A DNA stretch of 64,000 nucleotides from Candidatus Palauibacter sp. (GCF_965261555.1 NZ_OZ253465.1:686667-750666); one strand, 5' to 3'. Positions 25,860-43,537 are shown, counted from the first letter of the stretch. Numbers and translations are program-made. Notes: generated by a model not told the origin, from the sequence alone.

Positions 25860-25866
25860 ACTCAAC

Positions 25867-28194: not shown

Positions 28195-28354
28195 TACGCC
28201 CCTGCTACGCTCTCCTGGTCGGGAAGTTCGTTGGGAAGATACCGCCTCCGGCCTGTCGGGTCCCGAGCCGGCCGGGCTGAGCGGCTCCGACCGGCCGACG
28301 CGGCGCGCCGAAACTAGCCGGCGGGTCGGATGGGAGCGAGCGGCTGCCGGGCCG

Positions 28355-28475
28355 TCAGGGGTCGGATCGGTCGAACTGCCACAGTTGGACGTACTCGATT
28401 CCGAGTTCGTCGTTGCGCCGCCCTGGAGGTAGTCAGGGCCGATTTCGAAGACGGAGAACCTTCGCGCGCCCGTGT
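28355..28475 (-). pseudogene. frameshifted C-terminal remnant of an NHL-propeller lipoprotein paralog
   Basis: The reverse strand encodes ..RRFSVFEIGPDYLQG, then a frameshift, then RRNDELGIEYVQLWQFDRSDP* and a stop; this matches the conserved C-terminus (EIGEDYLLG..DELGVEYVQLWSL) of the array genes. Confidence 0.55.
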
Positions 28476-28479
28476 CCGT

Positions 28480-29691
28480 TCATCGGTCCTCCGAGCTCGT
28501 GGCGACCTCCGGTGGGAGAGGGTAGAGCGACACGTACTCGATGTCGAGTTCGTCCTGCTCGATGACGATCAAGTGTCGCTCACCGACGCGGGTCAGCCTG
28601 GCGCTCGCGGGGAGGGCGCCGCGCCCGCGGAGACGCCCGTCGGCGTCGAATGCGAGCCAGCGCTGTCCCTCCGGGTCCCCGGGGCGGCGCCACTCCTCCA
28701 CCCAGAAGCCGCCGTCCGGGGCCGCGCGAAGCCCGGAGACCGTACCGAACTGTTCGGCGACCGGCGCCGCGTCGAAGAACCTGAGCGCCTGCCGCCGCTG
28801 CTCCTCGTTGGTCGCGCTCCGGACCGCCTCCTCGCGTGCCGCCGCCACGTGCGCCTCGGTGACGGTGCGGTCGCGCCCCGCCCAGCGGACCAGCCGGGCC
28901 AGTCGGCCGTCGGGATCGAGGATGCGGACCTCGTACGCGTCGCCCATCGCCAGCGCGATGGCGTCGTCGAGGGCGGTCGCGCCGGCGAGCCCTTCGAAAT
29001 GCCGCGCGAGAAGGACCGTCTCTCCCCCGATGTCCACCGGGCCGAGACGCCAGCCCGGGACGTTGAACACCGTGTCCCGGAGCACTCCGGAGCCGGCGAA
29101 GCGAAGCCCGATGAGCGGCGACCAGGTGAAGTCTTCCGAGCGGGTCATCAGGAGGCTCGTGACGAGCACGCTCCCGTCGCCGAAGCGCCCTCCGGGCAGC
29201 GGGGCGGCCGGGAGCGGGCGCATCGGGCTGACCGAGAGGAAACCGCCACCGGCGGTCCAGTAGGCGAGCCTTCGATTCCTCCAGTCATGGATCACGAGGG
29301 AATCCGCCCCCGCGCTCCAGACGCGCTGCGGCAGGCCGATTTCCCGCGGTCCCTGCCCCAGGGATCCGAAGGAGCGGAGAATGCCGCCGTCCGGGGCGAA
29401 CACACGGATGAGCGGCTCGACCTGGCTCACGACCACGACGGAGCCGTCATCCAGTTCGAGGGCGTCGACAATTCGGAACATCTGGTATTCGGGCGGACCG
29501 TCTTGCATGCCCAGGCGCAAGTTGGGCCGAGGCGGCAGGTCGAACTCCGGGATGTCTCCGCGGTTCTCGACGATCTCGACGCCCGCGCTGTCGCGCACCA
29601 CGAAGTCCTGGGCGCGAGCACCGGTCGATGCGTCGCAGGCGAGGCACAGGACGGCGACAGCCAGGATCGTGATCCTCCGGAAGTTGTCCAT
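28480..29691 (-). CDS. NHL-type beta-propeller lipoprotein, array paralog 1
   Basis: Lipoprotein signal MDNFRRITILAVAVLCLAC; blades carrying GQGPREIG-like motifs; C-terminal DELDIEYVSLYPL. Confidence 0.7.
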   Translation of the reverse strand: MDNFRRITILAVAVLCLACDASTGARAQDFVVRDSAGVEIVENRGDIPEFDLPPRPNLRLGMQDGPPEYQMFRIVDALELDDGSVVVVSQVEPLIRVFAPDGGILRSFGSLGQGPREIGLPQRVWSAGADSLVIHDWRNRRLAYWTAGGGFLSVSPMRPLPAAPLPGGRFGDGSVLVTSLLMTRSEDFTWSPLIGLRFAGSGVLRDTVFNVPGWRLGPVDIGGETVLLARHFEGLAGATALDDAIALAMGDAYEVRILDPDGRLARLVRWAGRDRTVTEAHVAAAREEAVRSATNEEQRRQALRFFDAAPVAEQFGTVSGLRAAPDGGFWVEEWRRPGDPEGQRWLAFDADGRLRGRGALPASARLTRVGERHLIVIEQDELDIEYVSLYPLPPEVATSSEDR

Positions 29692-29709
29692 TGGTCTCTC
29701 CCCCTCCCG

Positions 29710-30837
29710 CTATGGGACCCGGGTGAAGCGGACGCGTGCGGCGCGCCAGACATCGAGAGAGTCGCGCGTCGTGCCGTAGAGGGTCGACTCGGTGACCCAG
29801 GGGGAGCCGAGGTGGCTGACGCGGCGCGGCCAGCGGTATCGCGCCACCAGCGTGCGCGCGCGGTAGACGTCGGCCTCGCGCATCTCCTGCCCATCGACCC
29901 CCGTCTTCTCCACCCACAGCCGGCCGCCGCGATCGAAGAAGAGTTCGGCGAGTACCGGCTTGCGGTCCGGGATCCCGTGCGGGTGGTCCCGCAGGTCGAA
30001 TCTCTCCTTCTCCTGGTCGATCCGGGCCTGCGCGCCCTGGCGTTCGTCCGGGCTCAACTCTGGTCCCTGCAGCGGCGCCTGGATCAGCGACGCGCTCCCA
30101 TCGGGATGGTGCAGCGTGACCGCATACGCGGAACTGACCGCCGTGGCCCACCAGCCGCCCGTCCCGTGCCCGTGGATCCACAGCGGGCCGAAGGGCTGGT
30201 AGAGGAAGAATGTGGCGGCCTGGTCCCCCACTCTGATGTCGACCGGGCTGAAGCCGGTGGCCTGCTCCTCTTCCGTCGCCATCGGGACCGTATCCACCGC
30301 CAGGCCCGGCCCCAAGTGGAAACGCGTGAACCGGGTGTCGCCGGCCGCCATCCCGAGATCGACGAGCCGGCCCTCCGCGTCGAAGGTGACCGGAGCGATC
30401 AGGTTGAAGGAGGCGTTCATGCTCCTGAGCCCGCGCGCGTACTCCGCGCCGTCGTCGTCGAGTCTGAACGCGCTGTAGCGGACGCTCTCCCGTACCCACA
30501 GGAGGCCTTCGGGCCCGAAGGTCATGCAGCAGGGATTCGTCAGTTCGCCGGGCCCCTCCCCCTGGCCGCCGAAGCGGAAGGCGAAGCGGCCGTCCGGGTC
30601 GAACACCCGCACCTCGTGCGTCTGATAGTCCGCCACGATCACCCGTCCGCGGTCGTCCTCCACGACGGAGCCGATGGTCGTGAACAGGTAGGGATCCTCC
30701 CCCTCGATCTCGCCGATCTCAAGGTCGATCATGCCCTCGAAGACCGGAATTTCGGGAGGCGGAGCCGGGGCACCGCTATCGACACACGCGGCGACTCCCC
30801 CCAACAGCGCGACCGCGACCGGGATTCGGGGCTTCAC
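29710..30837 (-). CDS. NHL-type beta-propeller lipoprotein, array paralog 2
   Basis: GTG start at 30837 overlaps the upstream stop (GTGA); signal VKPRIPVAVALLGGVAAC; GQGEGPGELTNP blade motif. Confidence 0.7.
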   Translation of the reverse strand: MKPRIPVAVALLGGVAACVDSGAPAPPPEIPVFEGMIDLEIGEIEGEDPYLFTTIGSVVEDDRGRVIVADYQTHEVRVFDPDGRFAFRFGGQGEGPGELTNPCCMTFGPEGLLWVRESVRYSAFRLDDDGAEYARGLRSMNASFNLIAPVTFDAEGRLVDLGMAAGDTRFTRFHLGPGLAVDTVPMATEEEQATGFSPVDIRVGDQAATFFLYQPFGPLWIHGHGTGGWWATAVSSAYAVTLHHPDGSASLIQAPLQGPELSPDERQGAQARIDQEKERFDLRDHPHGIPDRKPVLAELFFDRGGRLWVEKTGVDGQEMREADVYRARTLVARYRWPRRVSHLGSPWVTESTLYGTTRDSLDVWRAARVRFTRVP

Positions 30838-32045
30838 GAACCGGATCGGTCGAGGGTCCAGGACTCCACGTACTCGATGTCGAGTTCGTCGTCCCGCGTG
30901 CCGAGGATGTAGTCCTCGCCAATCTCCGTGACGTCGAAGCTCCCGGGCATCTCGACCAGGCCGAGGACGCGTCCCTCCGGGTCGAACACGGTCCACAGCC
31001 GGTGCTCTTCCCCGGGAAGCCGGTATTCCTCGACCCAAAGGTGCCCGAGACGGTCGACGAACACCCCGTTGAAGGCGGGGAACGCCTCGACGAGCGGCAT
31101 GCCCGCAACCGCGTCGAGCGCCTCGGGCCGGTCGGGGTTCTGGCGGACGACGTAGTCACGCAGGTCGGCCCGGGTTGGAGCGCGGGCCTCGTGGTCGCGA
31201 CGGACGATCCTCGCCAGCGACCCGTCCGCGCGATATCCGCGGATCTCATAGCGGTCGTTCGTGGTGATGACGATCAGGTCACCCCATGCGAACGCGAACG
31301 CGCGGCGAGCGAACGGGTAGGCCCGGGGAAACGTCCTCTCGGCGGTAGTGGCGACGTACAGTTCCGATCCGGGGTACGCGCCCAGGTCCCGGTGTACGCT
31401 CCCGTCCGCCTCCAGAATCCCGTATTCGAGGTCCGGGCGCGTGAGTTCCGACGTGCCCGGCGTGCCGCCCGAGTACGACGTGAGGGTCTGGGCCAGGATC
31501 CTCCCGTCCGGAAGCTGGCCGACCGCGCTCTCGTAGCGGCCCTGCAGCCTGAAGGCGCGACCGAACGTTCCGCGCGCGGAGAAGACGGACAGCCGGCGCT
31601 GGAACGGCTCCCTGGCCATCAGCGAATCGCCCGCCCACCGCTCCAGACTCGCCGGAGCCATGGCGCCGAATTCGCCCGGACCGTCGCCCTGGCCTCCCCA
31701 CGACTCGAGGTGGACGCCGTCGGAGTCGAAGACGCGGAGTTCGCCGGAACCCGCGTTGGCGACCACGATCCGCCCGTCGGAAAGCCGCATCGCGTCGTAG
31801 GCGCGGAAGAGTTCGTACGCCGGATCTCCCGCCGGGGACCCGATCGTCACGGCCGGTGCCTCCCCTACCCGCCATCCCAGTCGCGAATCGAGCGGAGGCC
31901 GCTCGTTCTCGACGATCGTGACCCCGGCGCTGTCCCTGACGACGCTTCTCGGGCTTCCGCGGCCATCCCCACCGCCGTCACCACCACCCGCACACGCCAA
32001 CCCCACCATACCCGCGAGGAGGGCCGTCAGAGTTCTCCCGTCCAT
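30834..32045 (-). CDS. NHL-type beta-propeller lipoprotein, array paralog 3
   Basis: Signal LLAGMVGLACAGG; GQGDGPGEFG motif; C-terminal DELDIEYVESWTL. Confidence 0.7.
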   Translation of the reverse strand: MDGRTLTALLAGMVGLACAGGGDGGGDGRGSPRSVVRDSAGVTIVENERPPLDSRLGWRVGEAPAVTIGSPAGDPAYELFRAYDAMRLSDGRIVVANAGSGELRVFDSDGVHLESWGGQGDGPGEFGAMAPASLERWAGDSLMAREPFQRRLSVFSARGTFGRAFRLQGRYESAVGQLPDGRILAQTLTSYSGGTPGTSELTRPDLEYGILEADGSVHRDLGAYPGSELYVATTAERTFPRAYPFARRAFAFAWGDLIVITTNDRYEIRGYRADGSLARIVRRDHEARAPTRADLRDYVVRQNPDRPEALDAVAGMPLVEAFPAFNGVFVDRLGHLWVEEYRLPGEEHRLWTVFDPEGRVLGLVEMPGSFDVTEIGEDYILGTRDDELDIEYVESWTLDRSGS

Positions 32046-32319
32046 GACTCTCCCCTATTGGCTCGGTTCCATCGTACCGAACCGGGGACACGATCAGCGG
32101 CGGGTTGGTTGTGCGGAGGTCGAGCTACCCCGCCAGGTGGACGCCCGGGACAGCGCCCCCCTTTGCCGGAACGCAAGAGCCCCGAGGACGAGAAGCGCCC
32201 TCGGGGCCCTTACCCCAGCGTCTTGCTGCACCCGAAGGCCTTTTGCAGTAGAGGACGACCTGAGGCATACACTTGTAGGATCGTCAACTCTCAGCCAAAC
32301 CGCAACCTGCGGAGTTGCT

Positions 32320-33033
32320 ATGCTACCCATCGAAGGCCTTCGAAGTGCGCTTTCAGCGGAGCGGCTGAGTGCCTACGCTCTCCCTGAGGACACCGACGAG
32401 ATCGACTGCGTGGCCAGGTATCTGTGGAATCTGGCGCGGTGCAGCGCCCTCCAACCGGCGCTTCATACCCTTGAAATTACCGTCCGGAACCGCCTTTTCG
32501 ACATCTCCAGAAAGATCATCGATGAGACCAAGCTCAGTCATGACAAGGTTCCGTGTTGGCTCGATGCTCGACCTTCGCTGCTTGCCGAACCCGAGCGTGA
32601 CGCCGTCGAGAAGGCGAAAGCAACGATCTTGGGACGGAGGAGTCCGCTGACCGAGGGCCGGCTTGTCTCGGTCCTGGGGTTTGGTTTCTGGGTGAGCCTG
32701 TGCAAACGGTCATATGAACAGGGGCGCACGGGTGGGCCGCGCCTCTGGCCCGAGTTGGCGACGAGGGGATTCCCGCATCCGCCCAACGCCAGGCGCACAC
32801 GAAGCCAGATCTTCCACGCCCTGAATCCACTCCGCGAACTACGCAACCGCGTTTCTCACCACGAAGCCGTTTGGGACCGGAAGCTCGACCGAAGCCATCG
32901 AGAGATCCTCGAGACCATAGCCTGGATCAACCCCGAATTGGCGGCGACCCTGGAGAAACACTCGCCGCTGCCGGCAGTACTCGACCGGGGCGTCGCCGGT
33001 TTCCGCGCTCAGGCCGAGGCGATCGTCAAGTGA
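32320..33033 (+). CDS. Abi-like protein (Abi_2 / AbiD-AbiF family, abortive-infection-type)
   Basis: In-frame ATG at 32320; LSAERLSAYA..YLWNLARCSAL..LEITVRNRL..LRELRNRVSHHEAVW matches the Abi_2 hallmark pattern; local GC is clearly lower than the flanks. Confidence 0.7.
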   Translation: MLPIEGLRSALSAERLSAYALPEDTDEIDCVARYLWNLARCSALQPALHTLEITVRNRLFDISRKIIDETKLSHDKVPCWLDARPSLLAEPERDAVEKAKATILGRRSPLTEGRLVSVLGFGFWVSLCKRSYEQGRTGGPRLWPELATRGFPHPPNARRTRSQIFHALNPLRELRNRVSHHEAVWDRKLDRSHREILETIAWINPELAATLEKHSPLPAVLDRGVAGFRAQAEAIVK

Positions 33034-33049
33034 CGCCGGCCGGCTTTGC

Positions 33050-34261
33050 CTACTGTCGAGGTCGCTCTGCCAGTTCGTACACGACGACGTTTTGTATGTC
33101 GAGGTCGTCCCTCAGCACGCCGAGGACGAGGGCTCCGGTCACGTCGAGGATCTGGAACCTCGGCGGCGTCTCGACCTGTCCCAGCCACTCTCCGTCCGGG
33201 GAAATGACGGTGTACGGGGACCCCTCTTCCGGGTAGGCGGGCCGGTAGGAGGGCAGCCATATGTTGCCGTCCGCGTCGGCGAAGGGGGTACTGAAGAACG
33301 GAATCGGCTGGCCGATCATGGCGCGATACCGGTCCATGTCTTCCTGAATGATCTCCTCGAGCCGGGCATCGGACACTCCGTAGTGCCTCCGGCCCAACGC
33401 TCGATTATAGGCCTCGCCGTGCTCCAGGAGTTCCTCGGCCAGCAGGTTGGGCTCGGGACGCCAGCGCACGATCTGGGTTACCCTGCCGTCCGGCAGGCGC
33501 CAGGCGATCTCGGGCCTGTCGGACCTCGTATGGACGAACCGCCCCGCCGCGACCGCGACCTCGCCGATGGGCCGGATGATCAGACGCGGCTGCTCCGACC
33601 GCTGTCGCGGGTAGTGGTCGTACGACGCCACCGTGTCGAGGGCGCCGGTTTCGATATCGAACAGGGTCATGTGCCCGGCGAGCCACTCCTCCTCTATGTC
33701 GATCCAGAGACGGTGGGGGTATCGGTCCATCATCATCAGCTCGCCGGATGAACCGATCCCCGCCACACCGAAGTGCGCTGCCCGCGGGAGGTTCACGATG
33801 CGCGCGACCGAATCGCCGACGAAGAGCGTGAGGCGGGACTGACGATCATCAGGCACAAGGACGCTGTCCTGGCCCAGGACGAACACCGCGTAGGGGGAGA
33901 TGACTTCGCCCGGTCCCTCTCCTGCCCTGGCGAGCACCTCGTGCGTCGCGCCGTCCGGACTCAGGACGATCACTTCGCTGTACCAGGCAACGACCGCGCT
34001 TCCATCCGGCAAGAGCCGGCCGGCGTCGACGAACTGAAACTCGTAGTCGCCGGGGTTGGCTCCGTGCCGGTACAGCGGCTCGGCCGCGAGGGTGAAGGGA
34101 GCCTCGACCTCCGGCACACCTGCGTACTCGACGATCCGCACGCCCGTGCTGTCCCGGATCTGGACCTGGATCTCGCCGGCGGGCCCGGCGTCGCCCCCGC
34201 AGGCAGCGAGGGCCGCCGCCAGAATCAGTACGCGGCTCGGCGTGAGTACGCGGCGCGTCAC
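33050..34261 (-). CDS. NHL-type beta-propeller lipoprotein, array paralog 4
   Basis: GTG at 34261 overlaps the upstream stop (GTGA); signal VLILAAALAACGG; GEGPGEV motif; C-terminal DLDIQNVVVYEL. Confidence 0.7.
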   Translation of the reverse strand: MTRRVLTPSRVLILAAALAACGGDAGPAGEIQVQIRDSTGVRIVEYAGVPEVEAPFTLAAEPLYRHGANPGDYEFQFVDAGRLLPDGSAVVAWYSEVIVLSPDGATHEVLARAGEGPGEVISPYAVFVLGQDSVLVPDDRQSRLTLFVGDSVARIVNLPRAAHFGVAGIGSSGELMMMDRYPHRLWIDIEEEWLAGHMTLFDIETGALDTVASYDHYPRQRSEQPRLIIRPIGEVAVAAGRFVHTRSDRPEIAWRLPDGRVTQIVRWRPEPNLLAEELLEHGEAYNRALGRRHYGVSDARLEEIIQEDMDRYRAMIGQPIPFFSTPFADADGNIWLPSYRPAYPEEGSPYTVISPDGEWLGQVETPPRFQILDVTGALVLGVLRDDLDIQNVVVYELAERPRQ

Positions 34262-35367
34262 CGGGCGAAGGGCAGGTTCGCGATGTCGTACCAGTCGAGG
34301 GCTCGGTCCGGAATCCCGTCGCCATCGTCCGGCCCCACCTGCCGATCGACGAGCACGACCAGAGTCGACCCCAGGAGGTCGAAGGCCCTGAGCCGGTCCC
34401 GGACCCGCACCGACCCGACGTATTCGGCGTCGTCGTACACGTCCAGCCAAGACCATTCGTGCTGGTCGCGGCCCGTGGCGACCCAGTAGCGGTTGGCGGC
34501 GTCGAAGAGATGCTCGCCCGCGGACAGATAGTAGTGCTTCGGAGTGGCGCTATACCTCTCCAACCCCTCGTCGATGGCGGGCGTGCGCGGGAGACCCTGC
34601 GATCTGTTGAGGGCCAGGAGTTCCTCTTCCCGCCGGGCCAGGTCCCGCTCGTTCGGGAGTTCCGGGACGTAAGTCGGTGCGCGGAGCACCGTGGCGTCGC
34701 CGGCGTCGCCGACGAAGACCAGATGCCCTTCGCAGGCCACGAACGCCCAGCCCCCGGCCGGGTCCGGGATACCATGGATGATCTGCCCGCACTCGATGCC
34801 CCACGGACCGGGCGGCGACTCTTCCTGCCCCACCGTCTCCCCGGAGGCGAGGTCCACCTCGTACCGGGTCATCAGCGATCCGGACATCCGGCCGAGCATC
34901 ACCATGTAGTCCAGCGACACGCCTGAAATCGCGGTGCCGAACGATGGGAAGGGCTGGAATACATCCGGGAGCAGCACATCCGACACGTAGACGCCCGATG
35001 GCTCGAAGACCGTGAAGCGGCCCAGGTCGGAATCCACCACGCCGACCGTTCCCGCCTCTCCGCGAGCGAGAGACGTGGGATCGCCGAACTCCCCGGGACC
35101 TTCGCCCTCGCGCCCGAAGACTCCCACGACGCCGCCTTCACCCGCCACGCAGCGGACCTGCCCTTCGTAGGAGTCGATGACGCAGGCGGTTCGCTCGTCT
35201 GCGAGCAGCGCGACTTCCTCGCTCTCGCTCAGGGGCACGGCGGCCGTGCCGATCAACTCGGGCGTGAAGACGGCCTCGTCTGTGGCTTCACCCGAACCGC
35301 ACGCCACGGCGATGACCAGGAGTGGAAGGCACGCGCCCGCGCGGCCGCGCGGAACGCGGATGGTCAT
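34258..35367 (-). CDS. NHL-type beta-propeller lipoprotein, array paralog 5 (more divergent)
   Basis: ATG (Met75 of the track ORF) overlaps the upstream stop (ATGA); signal LPLLVIAVACGSG; REGEGPGEFG motif. Confidence 0.65.
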   Translation of the reverse strand: MTIRVPRGRAGACLPLLVIAVACGSGEATDEAVFTPELIGTAAVPLSESEEVALLADERTACVIDSYEGQVRCVAGEGGVVGVFGREGEGPGEFGDPTSLARGEAGTVGVVDSDLGRFTVFEPSGVYVSDVLLPDVFQPFPSFGTAISGVSLDYMVMLGRMSGSLMTRYEVDLASGETVGQEESPPGPWGIECGQIIHGIPDPAGGWAFVACEGHLVFVGDAGDATVLRAPTYVPELPNERDLARREEELLALNRSQGLPRTPAIDEGLERYSATPKHYYLSAGEHLFDAANRYWVATGRDQHEWSWLDVYDDAEYVGSVRVRDRLRAFDLLGSTLVVLVDRQVGPDDGDGIPDRALDWYDIANLPFAR

Positions 35368-36812
35368 GACTTCTCCAGGGAATAGAGGCGGACGTATTCG
35401 ACGCCCCGGCTGTCGCTCCATACGCCGAGCAGGTAGTCGTCGCCGATCTCGAGGCCGGGGGCCATGCTCGCGATGAACCCCCGGTTCAACCCTGCCGGGA
35501 CGGAGACGCTGCCCAGCCAGGTGCCGTCCGCGGCGAAGACCTCGAACGGCGCCACTTCGATCCCCGCGCCGAAGAACGGCTCCACCCACAGACTCCCCGT
35601 CTCATCCAGGCGGATGGACCGCAGCACGGGGAGCGTCGGAGCCCTCGGATCGTCGCGGCGACGACGCCCCATTCCCTCCGCCTGCTCGCGCGAGACGCCG
35701 CCGTACATGACGTTCGTCTCAATGTACTCCTCGATCTCCGCGTCCACGTGGGCGTCCGTGACGGGGACCGGGGCGATGTCGCGACTGAGGATCCGCCTCG
35801 TCCCGCCGTCCTCGAGGGAGATCGACCGTATGTGGAACGCCTCCGTATCGACTGCCGCGAGCGTCCCGGGAGTGACAGCGAACCGCGGCCCTTTCCCGAA
35901 GTCGTAGCCGATGTAGGCGACGTTCTCGCCGTACCGCGCGATCACCTGCTCCGCGCCGGGGAAGTCCGAGACCGCCCGGATCGCGCCGTCGGCCAGGTCG
36001 AAGGTCGCGACTCTGACGGCGGGCCATCGCACGACCCCTCCCTCCGGCATCTCGGTATTGTCCGTGAAGGCCATGACGAGATCGCGACCCGAGACGCCGA
36101 GCGCGCGCTGCGGCATGGATCCGCTCCAAGGCGATTCGACGGGGAGCGTGCGGACGAGTTCGCCCGCCGCGTCGAAGATCTGCACGCGCCCGAGCGCGAG
36201 GTCGTACGTGACGAGCGAGTCGCCGGCGAGCACGCCGAGGAAGGAGAGGAACCGGTGTTCGCCGGGCCCTTCGCCTTCTCCGGCCGCGCGCCACACGAAG
36301 GTTCCCGCGGCATCGTAGCGGCGGAGTTCGCCGGAGCCCCCGTCCCCGAGAACGATGTCGCCGGAGCCGAGGCGGACCGCGCCGACCACGCCGTCGAGTT
36401 CGTAGTCGGGATCTCCGGTCGCGGTCCCGATCTCGAGCAGCGGCGGCTCGCCCACGGTCCAGCCCTCGCCCGGGCCCCACGCCGGCTCGACGGCCGTGGC
36501 GATGGCCACGCCGGCCGAGTCCGAGTGCAGCGTGCCCGCCGGCGCCCCCGCCGAATCGCAGGCTTGCACGGCGAGCACGACCGAGAGTGGAACGAAAGCG
36601 CCCGCGCGCCATGGGGTCGGCCGGCCCGCGCTCCACCGACGGCGAGTCAGGAGGCGGGCTCCCGCGACAACGACCAGAGCTGGACGTATTCGACACCCAA
36701 CTCGTCGGATACCCATCCCAGCAGGTAGTCCTCGCCGATCTCGAAGATGCGGAGGCCGGCCGGGGTCTCGACCAGGCCCTGGACCCGTCCCTCCGCGTCG
36801 AAGACGGTCCAC
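35364..36812 (-). CDS. NHL-type beta-propeller lipoprotein, array paralog 6 (start uncertain)
   Basis: GEGEGPGEH motif and C-terminal RGVEYVRLYSLEKS; lipobox ..LSVVLAVQAC near residue 85 of the track ORF, so the true start probably lies within about 36650-36720; the track start overlaps paralog 7 by 166 nt. Confidence 0.6.
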   Translation of the reverse strand: MDRLRRGGTGPGPGRDPGRPPHLRDRRGLPAGMGIRRVGCRIRPALVVVAGARLLTRRRWSAGRPTPWRAGAFVPLSVVLAVQACDSAGAPAGTLHSDSAGVAIATAVEPAWGPGEGWTVGEPPLLEIGTATGDPDYELDGVVGAVRLGSGDIVLGDGGSGELRRYDAAGTFVWRAAGEGEGPGEHRFLSFLGVLAGDSLVTYDLALGRVQIFDAAGELVRTLPVESPWSGSMPQRALGVSGRDLVMAFTDNTEMPEGGVVRWPAVRVATFDLADGAIRAVSDFPGAEQVIARYGENVAYIGYDFGKGPRFAVTPGTLAAVDTEAFHIRSISLEDGGTRRILSRDIAPVPVTDAHVDAEIEEYIETNVMYGGVSREQAEGMGRRRRDDPRAPTLPVLRSIRLDETGSLWVEPFFGAGIEVAPFEVFAADGTWLGSVSVPAGLNRGFIASMAPGLEIGDDYLLGVWSDSRGVEYVRLYSLEKS

Positions 36813-37984
36813 ACGGCGGCTTCGTACGCCCGCACCCAGAGATAGCCGGCACGGTCCGACAGAACCTCCTCGAAGGCGGGATACGACTCCACCAGCGGCA
36901 TGTCCCGCACGGCATCGAGGCTGCTGCGTCGGTCCTCGTCGGGGAGATCCGCGTAGCGCTGGGCGTAGTACTCGTCCAGATCGGCCTGCGTGGGGCGCTC
37001 CAGGTCACCGTCGCAGCGTACCACCCTGACCAGCGACCCATCGGAGGCGAAGGCCTTGATCTCGTAGCTGTCCTGCACGCCGATCGCGGCGAGTTCTTCC
37101 CACACGGCCCCCGTGGTGCCGCGACCGAAGGGGTGAGGCATGCCGCCCTGGAGGCTGCCGTCCGCCTCGAAGATGGCGTAGAACTCGCTTCCCGGAAATT
37201 CGCCGAGCGAAGCGAACCGCGCGCCGTGTTCGTCCAGGATTCCCCATTCCGCGCTGGAGCGGACGAGGCCCGAGGACCCTGTCATGTCCATGTTGAGGCC
37301 ACCTCCGCTACCGCGGGTGAAGATCTTCCCGTCCGGGAGCAGGTCCACGACGTTGAGCATGGTGGGGTCGAGGGATACGTCACGACCGTGGTTCCCCTCC
37401 GCATCGAACAACGACAGGCGGGTGCCCCAGGGATTCACGGCGGCGATCGAGTCGCCGGGCCACGAGGCCACGGCGCTCGGGCTGTAGCTGACGAACTCCC
37501 CCGGGCCCTCGCCCCGGCCTCCCGCCGTCGCGGAGTGGGAGCCGTCCGCGTTGAAGATTCTGAGTTCGTTGCTGCCCGAGTTGGCGATGACGATCCGGCC
37601 CTCCGCGAGCCGGGTGGCGTCGGTGACGCGGAACAACTGGTCGGCTCCGCCGCCGTCAACGGCGCCGATCGAAAGGGACGGCTCCGCGCCGAACGTCCAC
37701 GGCAGCCGCGTGTCCAGCGCGGGCGCCGGGTTCTCCACGATGCTGACGCCGGCGCTGTCACGGATCGCCGCCACGAGCCCCCGGTCGCCGTTCTCGACGG
37801 TGCCCTCGCACCCCACGGCGGGAAGGGCCAGCGCGAGGATGCCGGTTGCGAGGCACCCCGTGGTGGCCGGCCGGGGCGGTGAGATCGGACCCGGCGCGCT
37901 CGCAGGCCGAGAGAGGAGTGGCCAGGGCCCCGGGACCCGGGAGCCGCGGATTCTCGGATGGCGGCGACGCCTATGGTCTCGCAT
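36647..37984 (-). CDS. NHL-type beta-propeller lipoprotein, array paralog 7 (start uncertain)
   Basis: Lipobox GILALALPAVGC; GRGEGPGEF motif; C-terminal DELGVEYVQLWSLSREPAS; about 40 aa of N-terminal extension in the track ORF is probably not translated. Confidence 0.6.
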   Translation of the reverse strand: MRDHRRRRHPRIRGSRVPGPWPLLSRPASAPGPISPPRPATTGCLATGILALALPAVGCEGTVENGDRGLVAAIRDSAGVSIVENPAPALDTRLPWTFGAEPSLSIGAVDGGGADQLFRVTDATRLAEGRIVIANSGSNELRIFNADGSHSATAGGRGEGPGEFVSYSPSAVASWPGDSIAAVNPWGTRLSLFDAEGNHGRDVSLDPTMLNVVDLLPDGKIFTRGSGGGLNMDMTGSSGLVRSSAEWGILDEHGARFASLGEFPGSEFYAIFEADGSLQGGMPHPFGRGTTGAVWEELAAIGVQDSYEIKAFASDGSLVRVVRCDGDLERPTQADLDEYYAQRYADLPDEDRRSSLDAVRDMPLVESYPAFEEVLSDRAGYLWVRAYEAAVWTVFDAEGRVQGLVETPAGLRIFEIGEDYLLGWVSDELGVEYVQLWSLSREPAS

Positions 37985-38001: not shown

Positions 38002-39861
38002 TCAGGGTTCTGAGTTCAAGACGCCCACTTGCCGCGGGATGTCAACGAGTGCGGAGCGCTCGAAGCGGACGCGGCCTTGGGCGTCGAGGACGAAGTTGGC
38101 TTGGATCGCGTACACGCCGAACGCGTCCGTCGCGTCGTCCTCAAGATCGTAGTAGACGGGATACGTGATCCCGCGCTCCTCAATGAACGCATCCATCTCC
38201 ACCCCCGCCGGATCCCGCCAGGCGATAGACAGCACCCGTGCGCCCAGGCGCTCCATCGTCTCCTGAAGACGCACCACGTCCGGGATCTTCTGGACGCACG
38301 GCGGACACCACCGGGCCCAGAAGATGACCACAGTGGGTTTTCCGGCGGTCAGGTCGGCCAGTGTGTGCCGGTTTCCGCCCGCATCGGTTACCTGAGCGTC
38401 GCCGGGGGTCCACTCCACGGCAGCGGACAGGACATTGGGCAACACCTGAACGGTCCCGGCGTCGAGCAGGTCGCGCCATTCGGGGCCGTCGGGGTCGTGA
38501 CCGACCAGCATGGCGAGCGAGTCGGCCTCTTCCGGGGACGTGATCGGGTCGGAGGCCAACGCCGCGTAGGCACGCGCAGCGCCCTCCACGTCGCCGGCAT
38601 TCAGCTTCAACTCGCCGAGGATCTCGAACAAATCCGGGCTCGCTGACCGGGTCGTCGCCTCCTCGACGATTCCCATGGCCGCGTCCGGGCTCGCGAATTC
38701 GTTGAGAAACCTGGCGTAGTCCTTCAACAGGGCACCGCGCTGGACGGCGACCGATTGAGCGTGCTCGTCGGCGGTTCGCCCCAGCGGCCGGACCGGGTCC
38801 GGCAACTCATAGCGCACCCTCGCGAGTTCCACGGCGCGTGAGCGACGCTCAGGGATCACGGCAATCATTCGGGGCAGCGCCAATCCCACCAACCCATAGG
38901 GGAACAAACGCTCGACCCATCGGTCCAGTGCGTTGAGGTCCCTCGCCGCGATGGCGAGCTCAAAGGCGAAAGCCTCAAACGGGCTCGTTGTCCCCTGGGC
39001 GTCCGGCCAATGACGCTCGAATTCGGCCAGCGCCAGCGCCGTATCTCCGTCGGTCTCCAATCGCGTCAAGGTCCTCCATCCGATGTCCATGGCCCAGGCG
39101 TCCGTCCCAGCCGTCTGTTCGGCGATAGACGTCCAGTGGGCACCACCCTCTTGGTGGAGCACGGCGGCGGCATAGCCGGAAAGCCCCTGGATCGCGGACA
39201 GCGAGAGTTCTTCGCTACGGTCCTTGTAGTGTTCGTGCAGCTCGGCGAAATGCGCCTGGTGCCACGCGAAGAGGCTGTCGCCTGTGGTCGATCCCAGAGC
39301 CGATCTCTCGAAAGAGCGAAGCTCACTCCAGCCGTCGAGCGAGTCCGGATACAACTCCATTGCACGGCGAAGCGCCTCCAGCGATGTGTGCACGTTCCGA
39401 TCCTCGAACTCGTCGGCCCGGCGCCTGAACGCGTGGTAGAGTGGCCTGTCGTCCGGTGCGTGCACGAGGAGATCGAAGAGCCGACCGCTGTTCGCGTCGA
39501 GCCGCTCGCCCGTCGCGTCCTCCACAACGAAGGCGGCGTAAACCGCGGCTTCCGGCAGGGTGAACCGCGTAGAAAAAGTGCCGCCGGATCCTCGGTTCAT
39601 GGTGGGGATCGTGAGCAGCCTCTCCTCGAGCCGAACCCGCCAGGACTTGTCATCGGCGGTTCCATACGTGCCACGCAGCACAAGTTCGGGTGCGTCGGCA
39701 AGCGTCCCGATCGGCGTATACGTGACCGTAATCTCGTCGCCCGCCATCGGGCGTTCGGGGGCGAAACGAAGCCCGGTCTCCCCTGGTGCCGTCTCCCGTG
39801 CGCAGGATAGCGCAGTTCCCACCGCGAGGGAGAGCGCAATCGCTCTGGACATTCTGATCAT
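38002..39861 (-). CDS. TlpA-like thiol-disulfide oxidoreductase lipoprotein with a long helical (TPR-like) N-terminal domain
   Basis: Signal MIRMSRAIALSLAVGTALSC; C-terminal thioredoxin fold with VVIFWARWCPPCVQ (CxxC). Confidence 0.75.
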   Translation of the reverse strand: MIRMSRAIALSLAVGTALSCARETAPGETGLRFAPERPMAGDEITVTYTPIGTLADAPELVLRGTYGTADDKSWRVRLEERLLTIPTMNRGSGGTFSTRFTLPEAAVYAAFVVEDATGERLDANSGRLFDLLVHAPDDRPLYHAFRRRADEFEDRNVHTSLEALRRAMELYPDSLDGWSELRSFERSALGSTTGDSLFAWHQAHFAELHEHYKDRSEELSLSAIQGLSGYAAAVLHQEGGAHWTSIAEQTAGTDAWAMDIGWRTLTRLETDGDTALALAEFERHWPDAQGTTSPFEAFAFELAIAARDLNALDRWVERLFPYGLVGLALPRMIAVIPERRSRAVELARVRYELPDPVRPLGRTADEHAQSVAVQRGALLKDYARFLNEFASPDAAMGIVEEATTRSASPDLFEILGELKLNAGDVEGAARAYAALASDPITSPEEADSLAMLVGHDPDGPEWRDLLDAGTVQVLPNVLSAAVEWTPGDAQVTDAGGNRHTLADLTAGKPTVVIFWARWCPPCVQKIPDVVRLQETMERLGARVLSIAWRDPAGVEMDAFIEERGITYPVYYDLEDDATDAFGVYAIQANFVLDAQGRVRFERSALVDIPRQVGVLNSEP

Positions 39862-39876
39862 TGGGTTTTCCGCGGC

Positions 39877-41652
39877 TCAGCCGGGATTCCGTGGTACGGT
39901 GTCCGTCGCCGGGGGACTCAGCAATTCGAGGAGGAAGTCGACGGCCTCTTCGGATTCGGTGCGGCCGAGCCAGTAGATGCCGCGCTCCCGCACTTCCTGA
40001 TCCGGTTCGTCGCGGATCAGTTCCATCAGTACCCTCGGAACCGTGGGGTCGGATCCGGCCCGCTGATAAATCGCGTAGATGGCCTGCCGCTTCAGGAAGG
40101 CCTCGGACAGCTCTCCGTACAGGTCGGCGAGATACGCCACCGTCAGCGTCGGGTGGGCCGCCCACGCGCTGAAGGCCGCGCCGCGCACGTCGCTGGCCAC
40201 CTCCGTGTCGTACGCGACCAGGCGCGCCCATTCGGCGGTCTGCATGTCCTCCTTCTGCCTCACCTTGCGCGCCAGCGCGCTGAGCAGAGACACCTTGTGA
40301 TCGTCCGAATCGAGCTGCTCGTAGAGTCGAACGAACACTCCGCCTTCCACGTGATCGAGGTCGCGCAGCGCATTGATCGCCTGGTAACGAATGCGGCCCG
40401 ACTTCGAGCGGTTGGCGAACGCGGCGACGAGAGCGTTCTGGATCGCGGTCGGCGCCGACGCGTCCACGGCATACCGGCTGCTGCGGAGCCCGCTGATCGC
40501 GTCGCTCTGCTCGGCGTCGTCATCCGAATCCCGGAGGGTTGCCGCGAGCACCCGGAACGCGGCCCGGGAGTTGAAACGCCACATTTCCTGAAGAGCGCTT
40601 CTGCGAACCGACTGTTCCGGATGGTTGGCGATGATGCCCAGGAGGACTCGCTCGGCTTCCTCGGTTTCCTCCCTCGCGATGAGCTCAACCGCCTCATCGT
40701 GAAGCCGCATCGAGCACTCATCCTCGCGGGCCAGGACATCGCGAAGCACCTGCACCCGGTTGACGTCATCGAAGCGCATCACGGCCTCGAGCGCCGCCAG
40801 CTGCACCGACACGTCTTCACACGCTTCCTGTTCCTGTGACCTGGCGCGCAGGGCCTCTTGGAGTTCCACCCGCTGCCAATGGAGGTTCGAAGCCTCGCGC
40901 ACGTAATCCGCAACCTGGCGCTCGTAGTCGGCCACGGGATCCGCCTGATCCGCCAACCGCCGGACGTAGTCGGCCACGCCCTGTACGTCCGGCTCGCCCT
41001 GTACGTCGGCCAGCAGTTCTGCGGCCACCGAGTCCGGCAGATCCGGCAGATCCGGCAGATCTGTCAGGTCGGCCGTCGACACGGGAAGCGAGAGGATGCG
41101 CCCCCCCACCTCCATGGGCATCACGCGAAAGCCCGGTATCGGGGCGGCAACGTCGAGCGTCTCCTCGGCCTCGCGCAACAGCTGCTCCGCATCGCCGGCG
41201 TCGCCGCTCGACGCGAGCTGGCTTTTGATCTCGAAGTCCAGGGCCCGCGCGTCGTGGTACAGCCGTCCGGCGGTCCTGCCCATGTTCGCCGGTCGCGCTT
41301 CGTCAAACCCGACCATCAGTATTTCCAGCAGCAAACGCGCTTCGGCCAGGTCGCCGAGGCGATAGCGGGCGAACGCTTCCCAGTAGTAGGAGTCGGGCTC
41401 GAACCGGGGTGTAGTGAGCGCGGACTCGGTTCGGACCGCCTGGAAGAGCGCCACCGCGCGTTCGAACTCCTCCGCGTTGATGGCGCGACGCGCTTCGAGG
41501 AAGCGCGCCACCTCTTCCTGCTGGACCGTCTGCGCGGCCAGGCTCTCCGCCCCGAACGCCCGCAGCGCATCGGGCGCGGGCGCGGCGTTCACGATGGCGA
41601 GGCCGGCGAGCAGCAGCCCGGTCCGGGTCAAGTGTCTCACGCGGTCACTCAT
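39877..41652 (-). CDS. HEAT/ARM-repeat protein with signal peptide
   Basis: Preferred start is Met292 of the track ORF (ATG 41652; alternative 41718), followed by a signal peptide (LLLAGLAIVNAAPA); the C-terminal half carries HEAT_2/PBS-lyase-like repeats (VRRSALQEM.., IRYQAINALRDL.., VRERGIYWLGR); the low-complexity 5' extension is discounted. Confidence 0.6.
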   Translation of the reverse strand: MSDRVRHLTRTGLLLAGLAIVNAAPAPDALRAFGAESLAAQTVQQEEVARFLEARRAINAEEFERAVALFQAVRTESALTTPRFEPDSYYWEAFARYRLGDLAEARLLLEILMVGFDEARPANMGRTAGRLYHDARALDFEIKSQLASSGDAGDAEQLLREAEETLDVAAPIPGFRVMPMEVGGRILSLPVSTADLTDLPDLPDLPDSVAAELLADVQGEPDVQGVADYVRRLADQADPVADYERQVADYVREASNLHWQRVELQEALRARSQEQEACEDVSVQLAALEAVMRFDDVNRVQVLRDVLAREDECSMRLHDEAVELIAREETEEAERVLLGIIANHPEQSVRRSALQEMWRFNSRAAFRVLAATLRDSDDDAEQSDAISGLRSSRYAVDASAPTAIQNALVAAFANRSKSGRIRYQAINALRDLDHVEGGVFVRLYEQLDSDDHKVSLLSALARKVRQKEDMQTAEWARLVAYDTEVASDVRGAAFSAWAAHPTLTVAYLADLYGELSEAFLKRQAIYAIYQRAGSDPTVPRVLMELIRDEPDQEVRERGIYWLGRTESEEAVDFLLELLSPPATDTVPRNPG

Positions 41653-41723
41653 GGTATGCCTCCGTACTCTATGGTCGACTCTGTGGTCGCTCTCCGTCGT
41701 CCTGTATCGCGCCTGCATCCGGA

Positions 41724-42821
41724 TCACGTGCCGCTCGCGGAGCGAAGCCGCAGCAGCGTCCCCTGCCGTTCCATGCTCTCGCGGGCCAGTTCGCGCTCGA
41801 AGTCCGGAGCGTCCGGGCCCAGGCGCGCGATCTGCACGAGGACGAGCTCGAGATCCTGCAGCAGCGTCCGCGCCTGCTGCCCGTCGGCGGCGGGCGTGGC
41901 GAGCCGTGAACGGGTCTCCACGAGCAGTTCGCGCGCCCACCGGGCGAGATCCTCCTGGGACTCGTCGGTGCCGATGTCCGTCCGGAAGGCGACGAGCAGG
42001 GTGCGGGCCCGGTCGAGGTGTCCCGCCATGTCGTACTCGTCGACGCTGGCGCGCCCCGCGGCGCCGGCAGGCCGTTGCGCCGGCGAGCTGACGGCGGCGC
42101 GGACCGGCGGGTCCGCCTCGGGCCGGGCCGCCGCCGGGGCCGGATCGGCTGCCGGCGGGCGCACGACCGCCGCGAACTGCCGGTTCGTCTCCAGGGGCTC
42201 CTCGACGACGGAAAGGGCCAGCGCCTCCTCGGCGGCCGTCGGCGCGAGGGGCCCGGAGTCGGTCGCGGCGACCGTCGGCCCGGTCGACGCAGCCGCTCCG
42301 ACCGACGCCGGGGCCGCCGACGCCACCGTCTCGGGCTCGGCAGGCACCGCCAGCTGCGGGCCGCCGTCGAGCGCCACGGCGAGCGCGACCGAAGCGGCGG
42401 CGGCTCCCGTCAGCCACGCGGCTGTCCGACCGGGCCGCCGCCCGAGCGTCCGGGCCACGACGAGCCGGAGCGGTCCGCGGGTCGCCTCGCGCGCGCCGGG
42501 GGTTTCGGGCTGCCGCGCGACCCATTCAGCTTCGATGCGTTCCCACATCGCCTCGCGCGGCGCGGGCGGCGGATCGTGGTAGCCCAGCACCTCGAGCGGG
42601 CGATCAGCGGCGTCGCCGACGCAGTCCACGGCATCCGCGATGCCCGACAAGTCCGCCGCCTCCGGCGAGTCCGACACCGGCGGCGCGCCCAGCCGCGTCT
42701 CGATCCCGGCCCACATCGCCTCGACCGGAGGCTCCGGCGGGTCGTGGTAGTCCGCCGCCTCCCGGCGGAGGAACCGGGCGAAGCGGCTCGCGTCGTCCGT
42801 GCGATCCTTCAGCATGCCCAT
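41724..42821 (-). CDS. membrane anti-sigma factor with a duplicated N-terminal motif
   Basis: Start at MGMLKD (42821) overlaps the sigma-factor stop; the motif DYHDPPEPPVEAMWAGIE recurs as GYHDPPPAPREAMWERIE; single TM (AAWLTGAAAASVALAVAL); Ala/Pro-rich periplasmic region. Confidence 0.6.
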   Translation of the reverse strand: MGMLKDRTDDASRFARFLRREAADYHDPPEPPVEAMWAGIETRLGAPPVSDSPEAADLSGIADAVDCVGDAADRPLEVLGYHDPPPAPREAMWERIEAEWVARQPETPGAREATRGPLRLVVARTLGRRPGRTAAWLTGAAAASVALAVALDGGPQLAVPAEPETVASAAPASVGAAASTGPTVAATDSGPLAPTAAEEALALSVVEEPLETNRQFAAVVRPPAADPAPAAARPEADPPVRAAVSSPAQRPAGAAGRASVDEYDMAGHLDRARTLLVAFRTDIGTDESQEDLARWARELLVETRSRLATPAADGQQARTLLQDLELVLVQIARLGPDAPDFERELARESMERQGTLLRLRSASGT

Positions 42822-43411
42822 TCTCCCGCGAAGTCCGCGAGCTTCTCCCGCAGGCGGCTGCGGGCCCGGAAGAGCTGCGACTTGGAGGTCCCGGCCTTGA
42901 TCCCGAGCATCGCCCCGATCTCCTCGTGCGTGTAGCCCTCGAGGTCGTGCAGCAGGAAGACGGTTCGATAGCCCGCGGGAAGCTCGTCGATCGCGCGGTG
43001 CAGCCGGTCCTTGACGTCGGGTTCGAGCCGGTTCGGGCCGCCCGTCGAGCGGAGGTCGTCGTGCAGCGCGGTCTCGCGGCTGCGGAACCGCTTCACCTTG
43101 CGGAGCCCGTTCAGCGACACCGTCGTCGCGATCGATCCCAGCCACGTCCCGAACGCGGCCTCGCCGCGAAACGTGTCGATCTTCGTGAACGCCCGCACGA
43201 ACGTCTCCTGCGTGAAATCCTCGGCGAGATGGTCCTCGCCCGCGAACCGGTAGCATATCCGGAACACGCGGTCCACGTGCGCGTCGTACAACGCGCGCGC
43301 CGCGTCCTCGTCGCCGTCCCTGAGCCGCTGAATGAGTTGCGGTTCCGTCACCGTGCCGGGATCTCCGGGTACACGTCGGTTCTTCCGCTTCCAGAACGGT
43401 GACACAGCCAA
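42809..43411 (-). CDS. ECF (group IV) RNA polymerase sigma-70 factor
   Basis: Region 2 (DFTQETFVRAF) and region 4 (LPAGYRTVFLLHDLEGYTHEEIGAMLGIKAGTSKSQLFRAR) signatures. Confidence 0.9.
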   Translation of the reverse strand: MAVSPFWKRKNRRVPGDPGTVTEPQLIQRLRDGDEDAARALYDAHVDRVFRICYRFAGEDHLAEDFTQETFVRAFTKIDTFRGEAAFGTWLGSIATTVSLNGLRKVKRFRSRETALHDDLRSTGGPNRLEPDVKDRLHRAIDELPAGYRTVFLLHDLEGYTHEEIGAMLGIKAGTSKSQLFRARSRLREKLADFAGEWAC

Positions 43412-43537
43412 CGCAGGATTAGTTGCGCGGGGGACGACCGGACCGCGGCGGGGATGCGCCGCGGCCGGTCGATCGGGGGCGGGGTTCCGCGAGGGGCCGA
43501 GACTCCCGGCCGGGCGCCGGGCGCCCGGACCCGCTAC

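Follow-up and report, generated by a model that had tools for sequence, protein, structure and literature searches.

The locus examined here raises the question of whether four adjacent genes, encoding a sigma factor of the extracytoplasmic function (ECF) type, a single-pass membrane protein, a secreted HEAT-repeat protein and a thioredoxin-like lipoprotein, form a signalling system, and whether the array of seven propeller lipoprotein genes that follows them belongs to its output. The genes lie in a stretch of 64,000 nucleotides (nt) from Candidatus Palauibacter sp. (GCF_965261555.1, NZ_OZ253465.1:686667-750666). This whole stretch is the window referred to below, and positions are counted from its first letter. 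A first-pass annotation made from the sequence alone had described the block as an envelope-redox-linked ECF regulon. The membrane protein is 100% identical to an NCBI protein of the genus Candidatus Palauibacter. We consider it probable that the locus represents one copy of a signalling module of the ECF sigma type that is conserved across Gemmatimonadota and works as proposed below. A literature search for this module, for Gemmatimonadota sigma factors and ECF systems, for DUF5128 and for Palauibacter regulators found nothing.

The coordinates of the four genes agree with the annotated picture of a tightly packed block on one strand (Table 1). The stop codon of the sigma gene overlaps the ATG of the next gene by 7 nt, or by 13 nt if ATG 42821 is used, and the following spacers measure 71 nt (before the HEAT gene), 15 nt (HEAT to TlpA-like) and, as annotated, 17 nt (TlpA-like to propeller gene 1). 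Strong terminators between the genes would have argued against a common unit. A scan of 28-44 kb gave no terminator-like sites between genes above chance and no sigma-70-like promoters above chance, and the 71-nt spacer has less structure than shuffled sequence. Rfam and tRNA scans of the whole window, including a 1-kb gap within the propeller array, returned no matches.

The first gene encodes an ECF sigma factor, on which Pfam, TIGR02937 and the solved relatives agree. Within the 200-residue open reading frame (ORF), Sigma70_r2 is found at residues 41-108 and Sigma70_r4_2 at 135-187, TIGR02937 scores 94.8 bits (cut-off 42.9), and the closest solved relatives are SigE of Mycobacterium tuberculosis, SigW of B. 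subtilis and RpoE of E. coli. The sigma-2 and sigma-4 domains are the only ones present, and the length fits the range of ~170-220 residues of ECF (group 4) factors. No NCBIfam equivalog reaches its cut-off for this protein, the best being PRK11922 (127 bits vs. 204). The start codon, however, had to be moved. TTG 43411, the start first annotated, falls between the -35 and -10 elements of the conserved promoter P1, and we therefore place the start at GTG 43351 (MTEPQL..., preceded by GGAGA), which is kept in relatives.

The promoter itself was recognised by comparison. An alignment of the sigma-upstream DNA of 17 Palauibacter-type loci contains a block, CGCAAC(T/C)AATC...TGTGTCACCG, that is conserved far above its surroundings, and in 77 of 78 loci throughout the phylum the sigma gene is preceded by GCAACY-N15/16-GTGTC, at 56-120 nt (mostly ~75 nt) from the conserved start MTEPQL. 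Its AAC in the -35 and its G/C-rich -10, such as (C)GTC, are those expected of an ECF promoter, and P1 is, as judged from its sequence, an autoregulated sigma promoter with the consensus GCAACY-N15/16-GTGTC. The first-pass annotation had proposed looking for GGAAC-N16-CGTC-like promoters upstream of the sigma gene and of the propeller genes. Sites do exist upstream of the sigma gene and of propeller gene 5, but their motif is the one given here.

The sequence GGAACC at 43483-43488, which had been put forward as a possible ECF -35, is present, but we reject it as a promoter element, and the conserved motif lies elsewhere. It lies in the loop of a small hairpin that is flanked by two strong GC hairpins, has no conserved -10 partner, and belongs to a hairpin region that is deleted in the close relatives L016, L018 and L022. 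The two strong hairpins, which lack a U-tract, stand between the upstream aminotransferase gene and P1 and are kept in most Palauibacter relatives. They probably serve as a factor-independent terminator or else represent a repeat element, and the region with GGAACC is probably part of the terminator region of the aminotransferase gene.

A two-block position weight matrix (PWM) built from 63 distinct sigma-upstream sites picks out just two sites in the 64-kb window, P1 (score 31.6) and P2 (21.8). By chance, 0.02 sites per window are expected to score at least 16, and none of 200 simulated windows reached 20. P2 lies ~37 nt upstream of ATG 32045 of propeller gene 5, which has the ribosome-binding site GGGGAGAG, and the P2 site is also found in L010 and L011, the closest relatives of the locus. 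When 1.5 Mb of related loci was scanned, the 78 sigma-upstream sites were accompanied by 49 others, all on the operon strand. Among these extra sites are ones before propeller genes, some of which follow the operon and others of which lie immediately upstream of it. One precedes the TlpA-like ortholog in L021 (score 31.5, 101 nt upstream), and others precede upstream genes on the same strand, e.g., the aminotransferase gene in some Longimicrobiales. Because sites of this kind stand before propeller genes, in the window and in many relatives, and before the TlpA-like ortholog, the propeller lipoproteins and the TlpA-like protein appear to belong to the predicted sigma regulon, as had been suggested for the propeller lipoproteins in the first-pass annotation.

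A second sigma-type site was also seen ~1,050 nt upstream of the sigma gene, before an Aminotran_4 gene that abuts it (L003 8379-8412), with equivalents in L037, L040 and L048-L053.

It might be argued that the TlpA-like gene and the propeller genes are transcribed independently of the sigma factor, and that their adjacency is a recent rearrangement without regulatory meaning. Segment 39898-35361 of the window, with the TlpA-like gene and propeller genes 1-2, is indeed missing in L010 and L011, relatives that are 92% identical on both flanks (~92% DNA identity through the HEAT gene; 95% and 89% beyond the missing segment) and have a 340-residue secreted protein in its place, and no sigma-type promoter directly precedes the TlpA-like gene of the window. 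However, the gaps of 15 and 17 nt are too small to hold a promoter, the scan of 28-44 kb described above gave neither terminators nor sigma-70-like promoters, and the ortholog has a sigma-type promoter before it in L021 and is part of the operon in L091. We regard separate transcription as very unlikely.

Evidence for a conserved unit comes from its distribution. A genome scan confirmed by tblastn found a relative of the membrane protein in 223 GTDB species, and the order sigma factor, membrane protein, TPR/YfiO+HEAT protein is present in all 89 loci that have such a relative (Palauibacterales, Longimicrobiales, Longimicrobium and Gemmatimonadaceae). The first two genes overlap by 4-13 nt in relatives; this coupling is seen in six of six gene-called loci, and the tblastn coordinates of the rest are consistent with it. 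The conserved core is the sigma factor, the anti-sigma candidate and the secreted TPR+HEAT protein.

Two contigs, L051 and L052, come from a bin labelled Deltaproteobacteria and carry near-identical copies of the module, which is of the Gemmatimonadota type, which points to bin contamination or a duplicated assembly.

The membrane protein encoded by the second gene requires closer consideration. Two motif copies, a single transmembrane helix and an Ala/Pro-rich tail had been annotated, and each was confirmed in the protein sequence. Copy 2 is the counterpart of the copy found in single-motif family members; its P88 and W93 are invariant in both alignments (A1 and A2), and M92 and I96 show no variation in A1 and almost none in A2. 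Residues 133-151 form the only hydrophobic segment (19-residue Kyte-Doolittle window of at least 1.6), with W136, A142 and A143 conserved. Because an Arg-rich stretch precedes this segment, an N-in topology is predicted. The tail at residues 161-262 consists of 30% Ala and 15% Pro. The AlphaFold2 (AF2) model, assessed by its predicted local distance difference test (pLDDT), has N-terminal helices at 5-25, 33-45 and 89-103, a transmembrane segment of low confidence, a disordered linker and a confident C-terminal bundle at 255-363, which is the most conserved part of the family.

Sigma factors of the RpoE/SigW/SigE type are controlled by single-pass anti-sigma factors. Because the gene overlaps the sigma gene, is conserved in all loci, encodes a protein of predicted N-in topology and accompanies an RpoE/SigW/SigE-like sigma factor, the 363-residue protein is most likely an anti-sigma factor of an undescribed family. 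Several results count against this assignment. No Pfam or NCBIfam model matches the protein at E <= 0.1, a sequence-profile search of the PDB gave nothing relevant, and Foldseek against the PDB returned neither a significant match to the AF2 model nor an anti-sigma chain (best E-value 0.25). AF2 leaves the three N-terminal helices separate, without a packed four-helix bundle. The sole apparent sigma/anti-sigma Rosetta-stone fusion, P0058 (530 residues), is an artefact, in which a frameshift causes out-of-frame read-through to replace the sigma C-terminus. Similarity to zf-HC2 or RskA domains, for which the first-pass annotation had proposed a search, is not found at the level of Pfam, NCBIfam, PDB sequence or fold. 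PF13490, PF03872 and PF10099 do not match, HxxxCxxC is absent, and the single cysteine is not conserved. The annotated anti-sigma role holds as far as position, overlap, topology and conservation are concerned, but not in similarity to known anti-sigma domains.

An alternative is that the protein is another co-conserved component, e.g., one that regulates positively, serves the HEAT protein as a scaffold or acts as a membrane tether, and that the sigma factor is controlled by other means. This would agree with the missing homology and fold matches, with N-terminal helices that do not form a packed domain, and with a motif copy number of 1-6, which is unusual for an anti-sigma domain. It would leave unexplained the translational coupling with the sigma gene, the standard anti-sigma layout of a cytoplasmic motif region before a single N-in membrane pass, and the place of the sigma factor in the RpoE/SigW/SigE neighbourhood, where control by single-pass anti-sigma factors prevails. 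Moreover, short N-terminal sigma-binding peptides are known: a region as short as Dma1(1-40) is enough to bind the sigma factor Das1 (PMC10927553). We consider such a different function quite improbable and retain the anti-sigma assignment.

The anti-sigma candidate belongs to a large family. An exhaustive profile search gave 2,271 representatives of clusters at 50% identity, 801 of them at E <= 1e-30; the top 150 of the family listing share one architecture, and ten longer, N-terminally extended members had no match when checked against Pfam. The motif YxxPPxxPxxxMW is the core of a helix-PPxxP-helix unit of 32-37 residues. Among the members sampled, 106 have one copy and 122 have two, and three, four and six copies each occur in a single member.

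The tandem units number six in P0185, four in P0220 and three in P0189. They repeat with a period of 32-37 residues in P0185 and P0220, and those of P0220 are nearly identical, which points to a recent expansion.

One may speculate that YxxPPxxPxxxMW is an autonomous sigma-binding module whose copy number sets the sigma load, coupled to a redox switch at a disulfide of the periplasmic HEAT protein. We think this combined idea unlikely to hold in full. If true, the protein would be a multivalent anti-sigma factor, and the copy number would set how many sigma molecules or sigma domains one chain holds.

The third gene encodes a secreted HEAT-repeat protein, as annotated: HEAT_2 (PF13646) scores 43.3 bits (cut-off 27.7) in two stretches, and the protein has a Sec-type signal peptide. 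Its orthologs combine HEAT_2 with YfiO and TPR_6 at the N-terminus. The only cysteines, C278 (40819-40821) and C313 (40714-40716), occupy equivalent positions of adjacent repeats and are kept in 80 of 80 and 79 of 80 orthologs, respectively, across the phylum. An invariant cysteine pair in a secreted protein suggests a disulfide, which may be structural or regulatory.

The fourth gene encodes, as described before, a lipoprotein with a WCPPC thioredoxin fold, on which Pfam, the lipobox (TALSC), AF2 and Foldseek agree. AhpC-TSA (72.8 bits, cut-off 26) and Redoxin (64.9 bits, cut-off 26.6) match residues 488-600, and WCPPC occupies residues 518-522 (38296-38310). The AF2 model (pLDDT 87.5) consists of a beta-sandwich, a TPR-like solenoid and a thioredoxin fold of the ResA/TlpA type, and the Foldseek matches are ResA, TlpA, DsbE, DsbF and Etrx2. 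By its modelled thioredoxin fold, its CxxC and its predicted extracytoplasmic location, the protein falls into the TlpA/ResA/DsbE class. All NCBIfam equivalog and subfamily models, among them those that would tie it to cytochrome or copper-centre maturation, stayed far below their cut-offs (TlpA 33 vs. 230, ResA 55 vs. 170).

The four-gene block that was first described stands only in part: the sigma, anti-sigma and HEAT genes are fixed, but the TlpA-like gene is not. In L021 its ortholog follows propeller gene 1, behind its own sigma-type promoter; in L091, which belongs to a different order, the same operon closes with two redoxin proteins, one of them a TlpA-like ortholog with 57% identity. 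Because the gene is absent from L010 and L011, is placed differently in L021 and L091 and has paralogs elsewhere, it is a recurrent but accessory member of the predicted regulon.

The TlpA-like family also occurs in other signalling contexts. A paralog with 43% identity occupies third place in a BlaI (Penicillinase_R)/BlaR (Peptidase_M56) operon (L093 8078-11929), which links the family to a second kind of envelope signalling system. P0178 and P0179 are canonical single-pass zf-HC2 (HxxxCxxC) anti-sigma factors whose periplasmic ectodomain and the N-domain of the TlpA-like protein are homologous, and P0178 additionally has a degenerate thioredoxin domain without CxxC. The 407- and 413-residue genes downstream of HEAT in distant loci were considered as further homologs of this N-domain, and no homology was found; the L003 protein is a relative of the propellers.

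Does the module respond to thiol-redox conditions? The envelope-redox link of the first-pass annotation is plausible in view of the invariant HEAT cysteine pair and the recurrent thiol-redox neighbours, and we hold it tentatively, at not quite an even chance. In 11-12 Gemmatimonadaceae loci the HEAT genes are followed by CcdA and a small TlpA; ~30 Longimicrobiales loci have MsrA, OsmC and DoxX no more than a few kb away, and four other loci have MsrA; a large TlpA-like lipoprotein is near the module in the window, L021 and L091. Other observations weigh against a redox role. No CcdA/DsbD, MsrA or OsmC genes were found in the window, the mature propellers have 0-4 cysteines and are not obvious disulfide substrates, and L010 and L011 have no TlpA-like gene at the locus. 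TlpA-like paralogs elsewhere stand in unrelated contexts and lack the promoter site. The HEAT cysteine pair could be purely structural, and gene neighbours shared by members of one order may reflect descent and not function.

An alternative is a general envelope or lipoprotein stress system without redox sensing, in which the cysteine pair is a structural disulfide and the thioredoxin-like genes are no more than frequent neighbours, or cargo of a lipoprotein array that shuffles. The varying presence and position of the TlpA-like gene, paralogs that lack a promoter, the lack of other redox genes in the window, propellers that are not Cys-rich and a possibly inherited MsrA/OsmC synteny in Longimicrobiales agree with such a system, and we regard it as a substantial possibility, though a doubtful one. 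It does not account for three kinds of thiol-redox neighbours in three lineages, for the strong sigma-type promoter directly before the L021 TlpA-like ortholog, or for the near-complete conservation across the phylum of the only two cysteines of the HEAT protein.

With or without a redox signal, the module could work as follows. The membrane protein would sequester the sigma factor through its N-terminal YxxPPxxPxxxMW modules, and the periplasmic HEAT protein would act on the C-terminal bundle as a co-sensor, as RseB does on RseA. The trigger would be an envelope signal, which may be thiol-redox or oxidative damage perceived through the cysteine pair, and it would lead to loss of the anti-sigma factor, most likely through regulated proteolysis. 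The free sigma factor would then transcribe from GCAACY-N15/16-GTGTC promoters, with P1 driving the genes for the sigma factor, the anti-sigma candidate, the HEAT protein, the TlpA-like lipoprotein and propellers 1-4, and P2 driving those for propellers 5-7.

The type of system is ordinary, whereas its components are undescribed and its promoter code is clear. RpoE-RseA-RseB, AlgU-MucA-MucB and SigW-RsiW are envelope-stress ECF modules under regulated intramembrane proteolysis. They resemble the present module in the order of a sigma factor, a single-pass N-in anti-sigma factor and a periplasmic accessory protein, and in an autoregulated promoter with AAC in its -35. They differ from it in several respects: neither RseA_N nor zf-HC2 resembles the anti-sigma candidate; the accessory protein, a TPR+HEAT solenoid that contains a cysteine pair, has a fold different from that of RseB/MucB; the promoter consensus is GCAACY-N15/16-GTGTC; and proteolysis, established for those systems, is here a conjecture by analogy.

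We know of no described anti-sigma class with 1-6 tandem binding units. The class I proteins (zf-HC2: RsrA, RslA, ChrR) and the non-canonical classes, CnrY/NepR (class II) and RsbN (class III) (PMC6101532), share with the candidate an N-terminal cytoplasmic helical part, here the putative sigma binder, followed by one transmembrane segment. Unlike class I, the candidate lacks HxxxCxxC, a four-helix bundle and a Pfam match, and its putative binding unit differs from those of the known classes in being a helix-PPxxP-helix of 32-37 residues in 1-6 tandem copies.

Ndamukong et al. are said to have reported in 2013 that the regulon of the EcfO-Reo type consists of envelope lipoproteins. In the ECF21 systems EcfO-Reo of Bacteroides fragilis and Das1-Dma1 of B. 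thetaiotaomicron, a short N-terminal anti-sigma region is enough to bind the sigma factor (PMC10927553), and EcfO protects against oxidative stress, as cited in that paper. These systems belong to another phylum, and the sigma factor of the window stays below the Bacteroidota ECF model NF058625 (79 bits vs. 130). Furthermore, Dma and Reo span both membranes, whereas the architecture of the candidate differs. The TlpA-like protein shares the thioredoxin fold, WCxxC and the lipoprotein anchor with TlpA, ResA, DsbE (CcmG) and Etrx (Foldseek TM-score ~0.8 to ResA). It differs from them in an extra N-terminal part of 450 residues, comprising the beta-sandwich and the TPR-like solenoid, and in that its ectodomain recurs as the sensor portion in zf-HC2 anti-sigma factors.

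The propeller array genes are paralogous and have lipobox-like signal peptides. Propeller 1 matches DUF5128 (PF17170) weakly, with 24.6 bits (cut-off 22.9) over only 92 residues, and in many Longimicrobiales and Palauibacter loci a DUF5128-type propeller gene lies directly 3' of the HEAT gene. The product of propeller gene 1 begins with an Arg/Pro-rich leader (37855-37984), with ~40 residues before the hydrophobic segment and 57 before the lipobox Cys, and the gene has no alternative start codon. Within the array, ~1 kb (32055-33049) has no convincing ORF and a lower GC content (~0.64); it stands between the genes assigned to P1 and the P2 site, shows 95% conservation with L010, also aligns with L011, and has no counterpart in L021 or L060. 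The last propeller gene is directly followed, on the same strand, by genes for two large membrane proteins that are paralogs of each other (23565-25964 and 25867-28479, minus strand; stop-to-stop frames of 799 and 870 codons), which share the N-terminal sequence EREKxGxLTLRxWGLxTA...YLLTxAPTxGFWD.

Table 1. Positions of the predicted genes, promoters and protein segments of the locus within the window.
Feature	Position	Strand	Remarks
Window			~69% GC; Candidatus Palauibacter, Gemmatimonadota
Hairpin region	43433-43532	-	3' of upstream aminotransferase gene; -69.8 kcal/mol, z = -2.5
P1, putative autoregulatory ECF-type promoter	43397-43429	-	CGC-GCAACT-N15-GTGTC-ACCG
P1 elements	-35 GCAAC 43426-43422; -10 GTGTC 43405-43401	-	
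ECF sigma factor	42809-43351	-	180 aa, GTG start
Anti-sigma candidate	41724-42815	-	363 aa, single-pass membrane protein
Motif copy 1, DYHDPPEPPVEAMWAGIE	aa 24-41, nt 42752-42699	-	predicted cytoplasmic
Motif copy 2, GYHDPPPAPREAMWERIE	aa 80-97, nt 42584-42531	-	predicted cytoplasmic
Transmembrane segment, TAAWLTGAAAASVALAVAL	aa 133-151, nt 42369-42425	-	Arg-rich stretch before
Predicted periplasmic C-terminal helical bundle	41733-42059	-	AF2 pLDDT >90, helices 255-363
HEAT protein	39877-41652	-	591 aa, secreted TPR/YfiO-like + HEAT repeats; GGAGG ribosome-binding site
TlpA-like gene	38002-39861	-	619 aa, TlpA/ResA-like lipoprotein
Propeller gene 1	36647-37984	-	
Propeller genes 1-4	33050-37984	-	downstream of TlpA-like gene, without own promoter
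P2, second sigma-type promoter	32083-32115	-	CGC-ACAACC-N15-GTGTC-CCCG
Propeller genes 5-7	28480-32045	-	downstream of P2

Gemmatimonadota are abundant in soils, oceans and sponges and have hardly been studied genetically. The module would provide this phylum with a defined envelope-stress pathway that has a readable promoter code, GCAACY-N15/16-GTGTC, and a regulon predicted to comprise DUF5128-type propeller lipoproteins and TlpA-like reductases. A large family that lacks annotation (~2,270 clusters at 50% identity) could be named as a candidate anti-sigma family, and the propeller lipoprotein arrays would gain a first regulatory context. In addition, the locus offers two testable ideas, that of a multivalent anti-sigma factor and that of a periplasmic cysteine switch.

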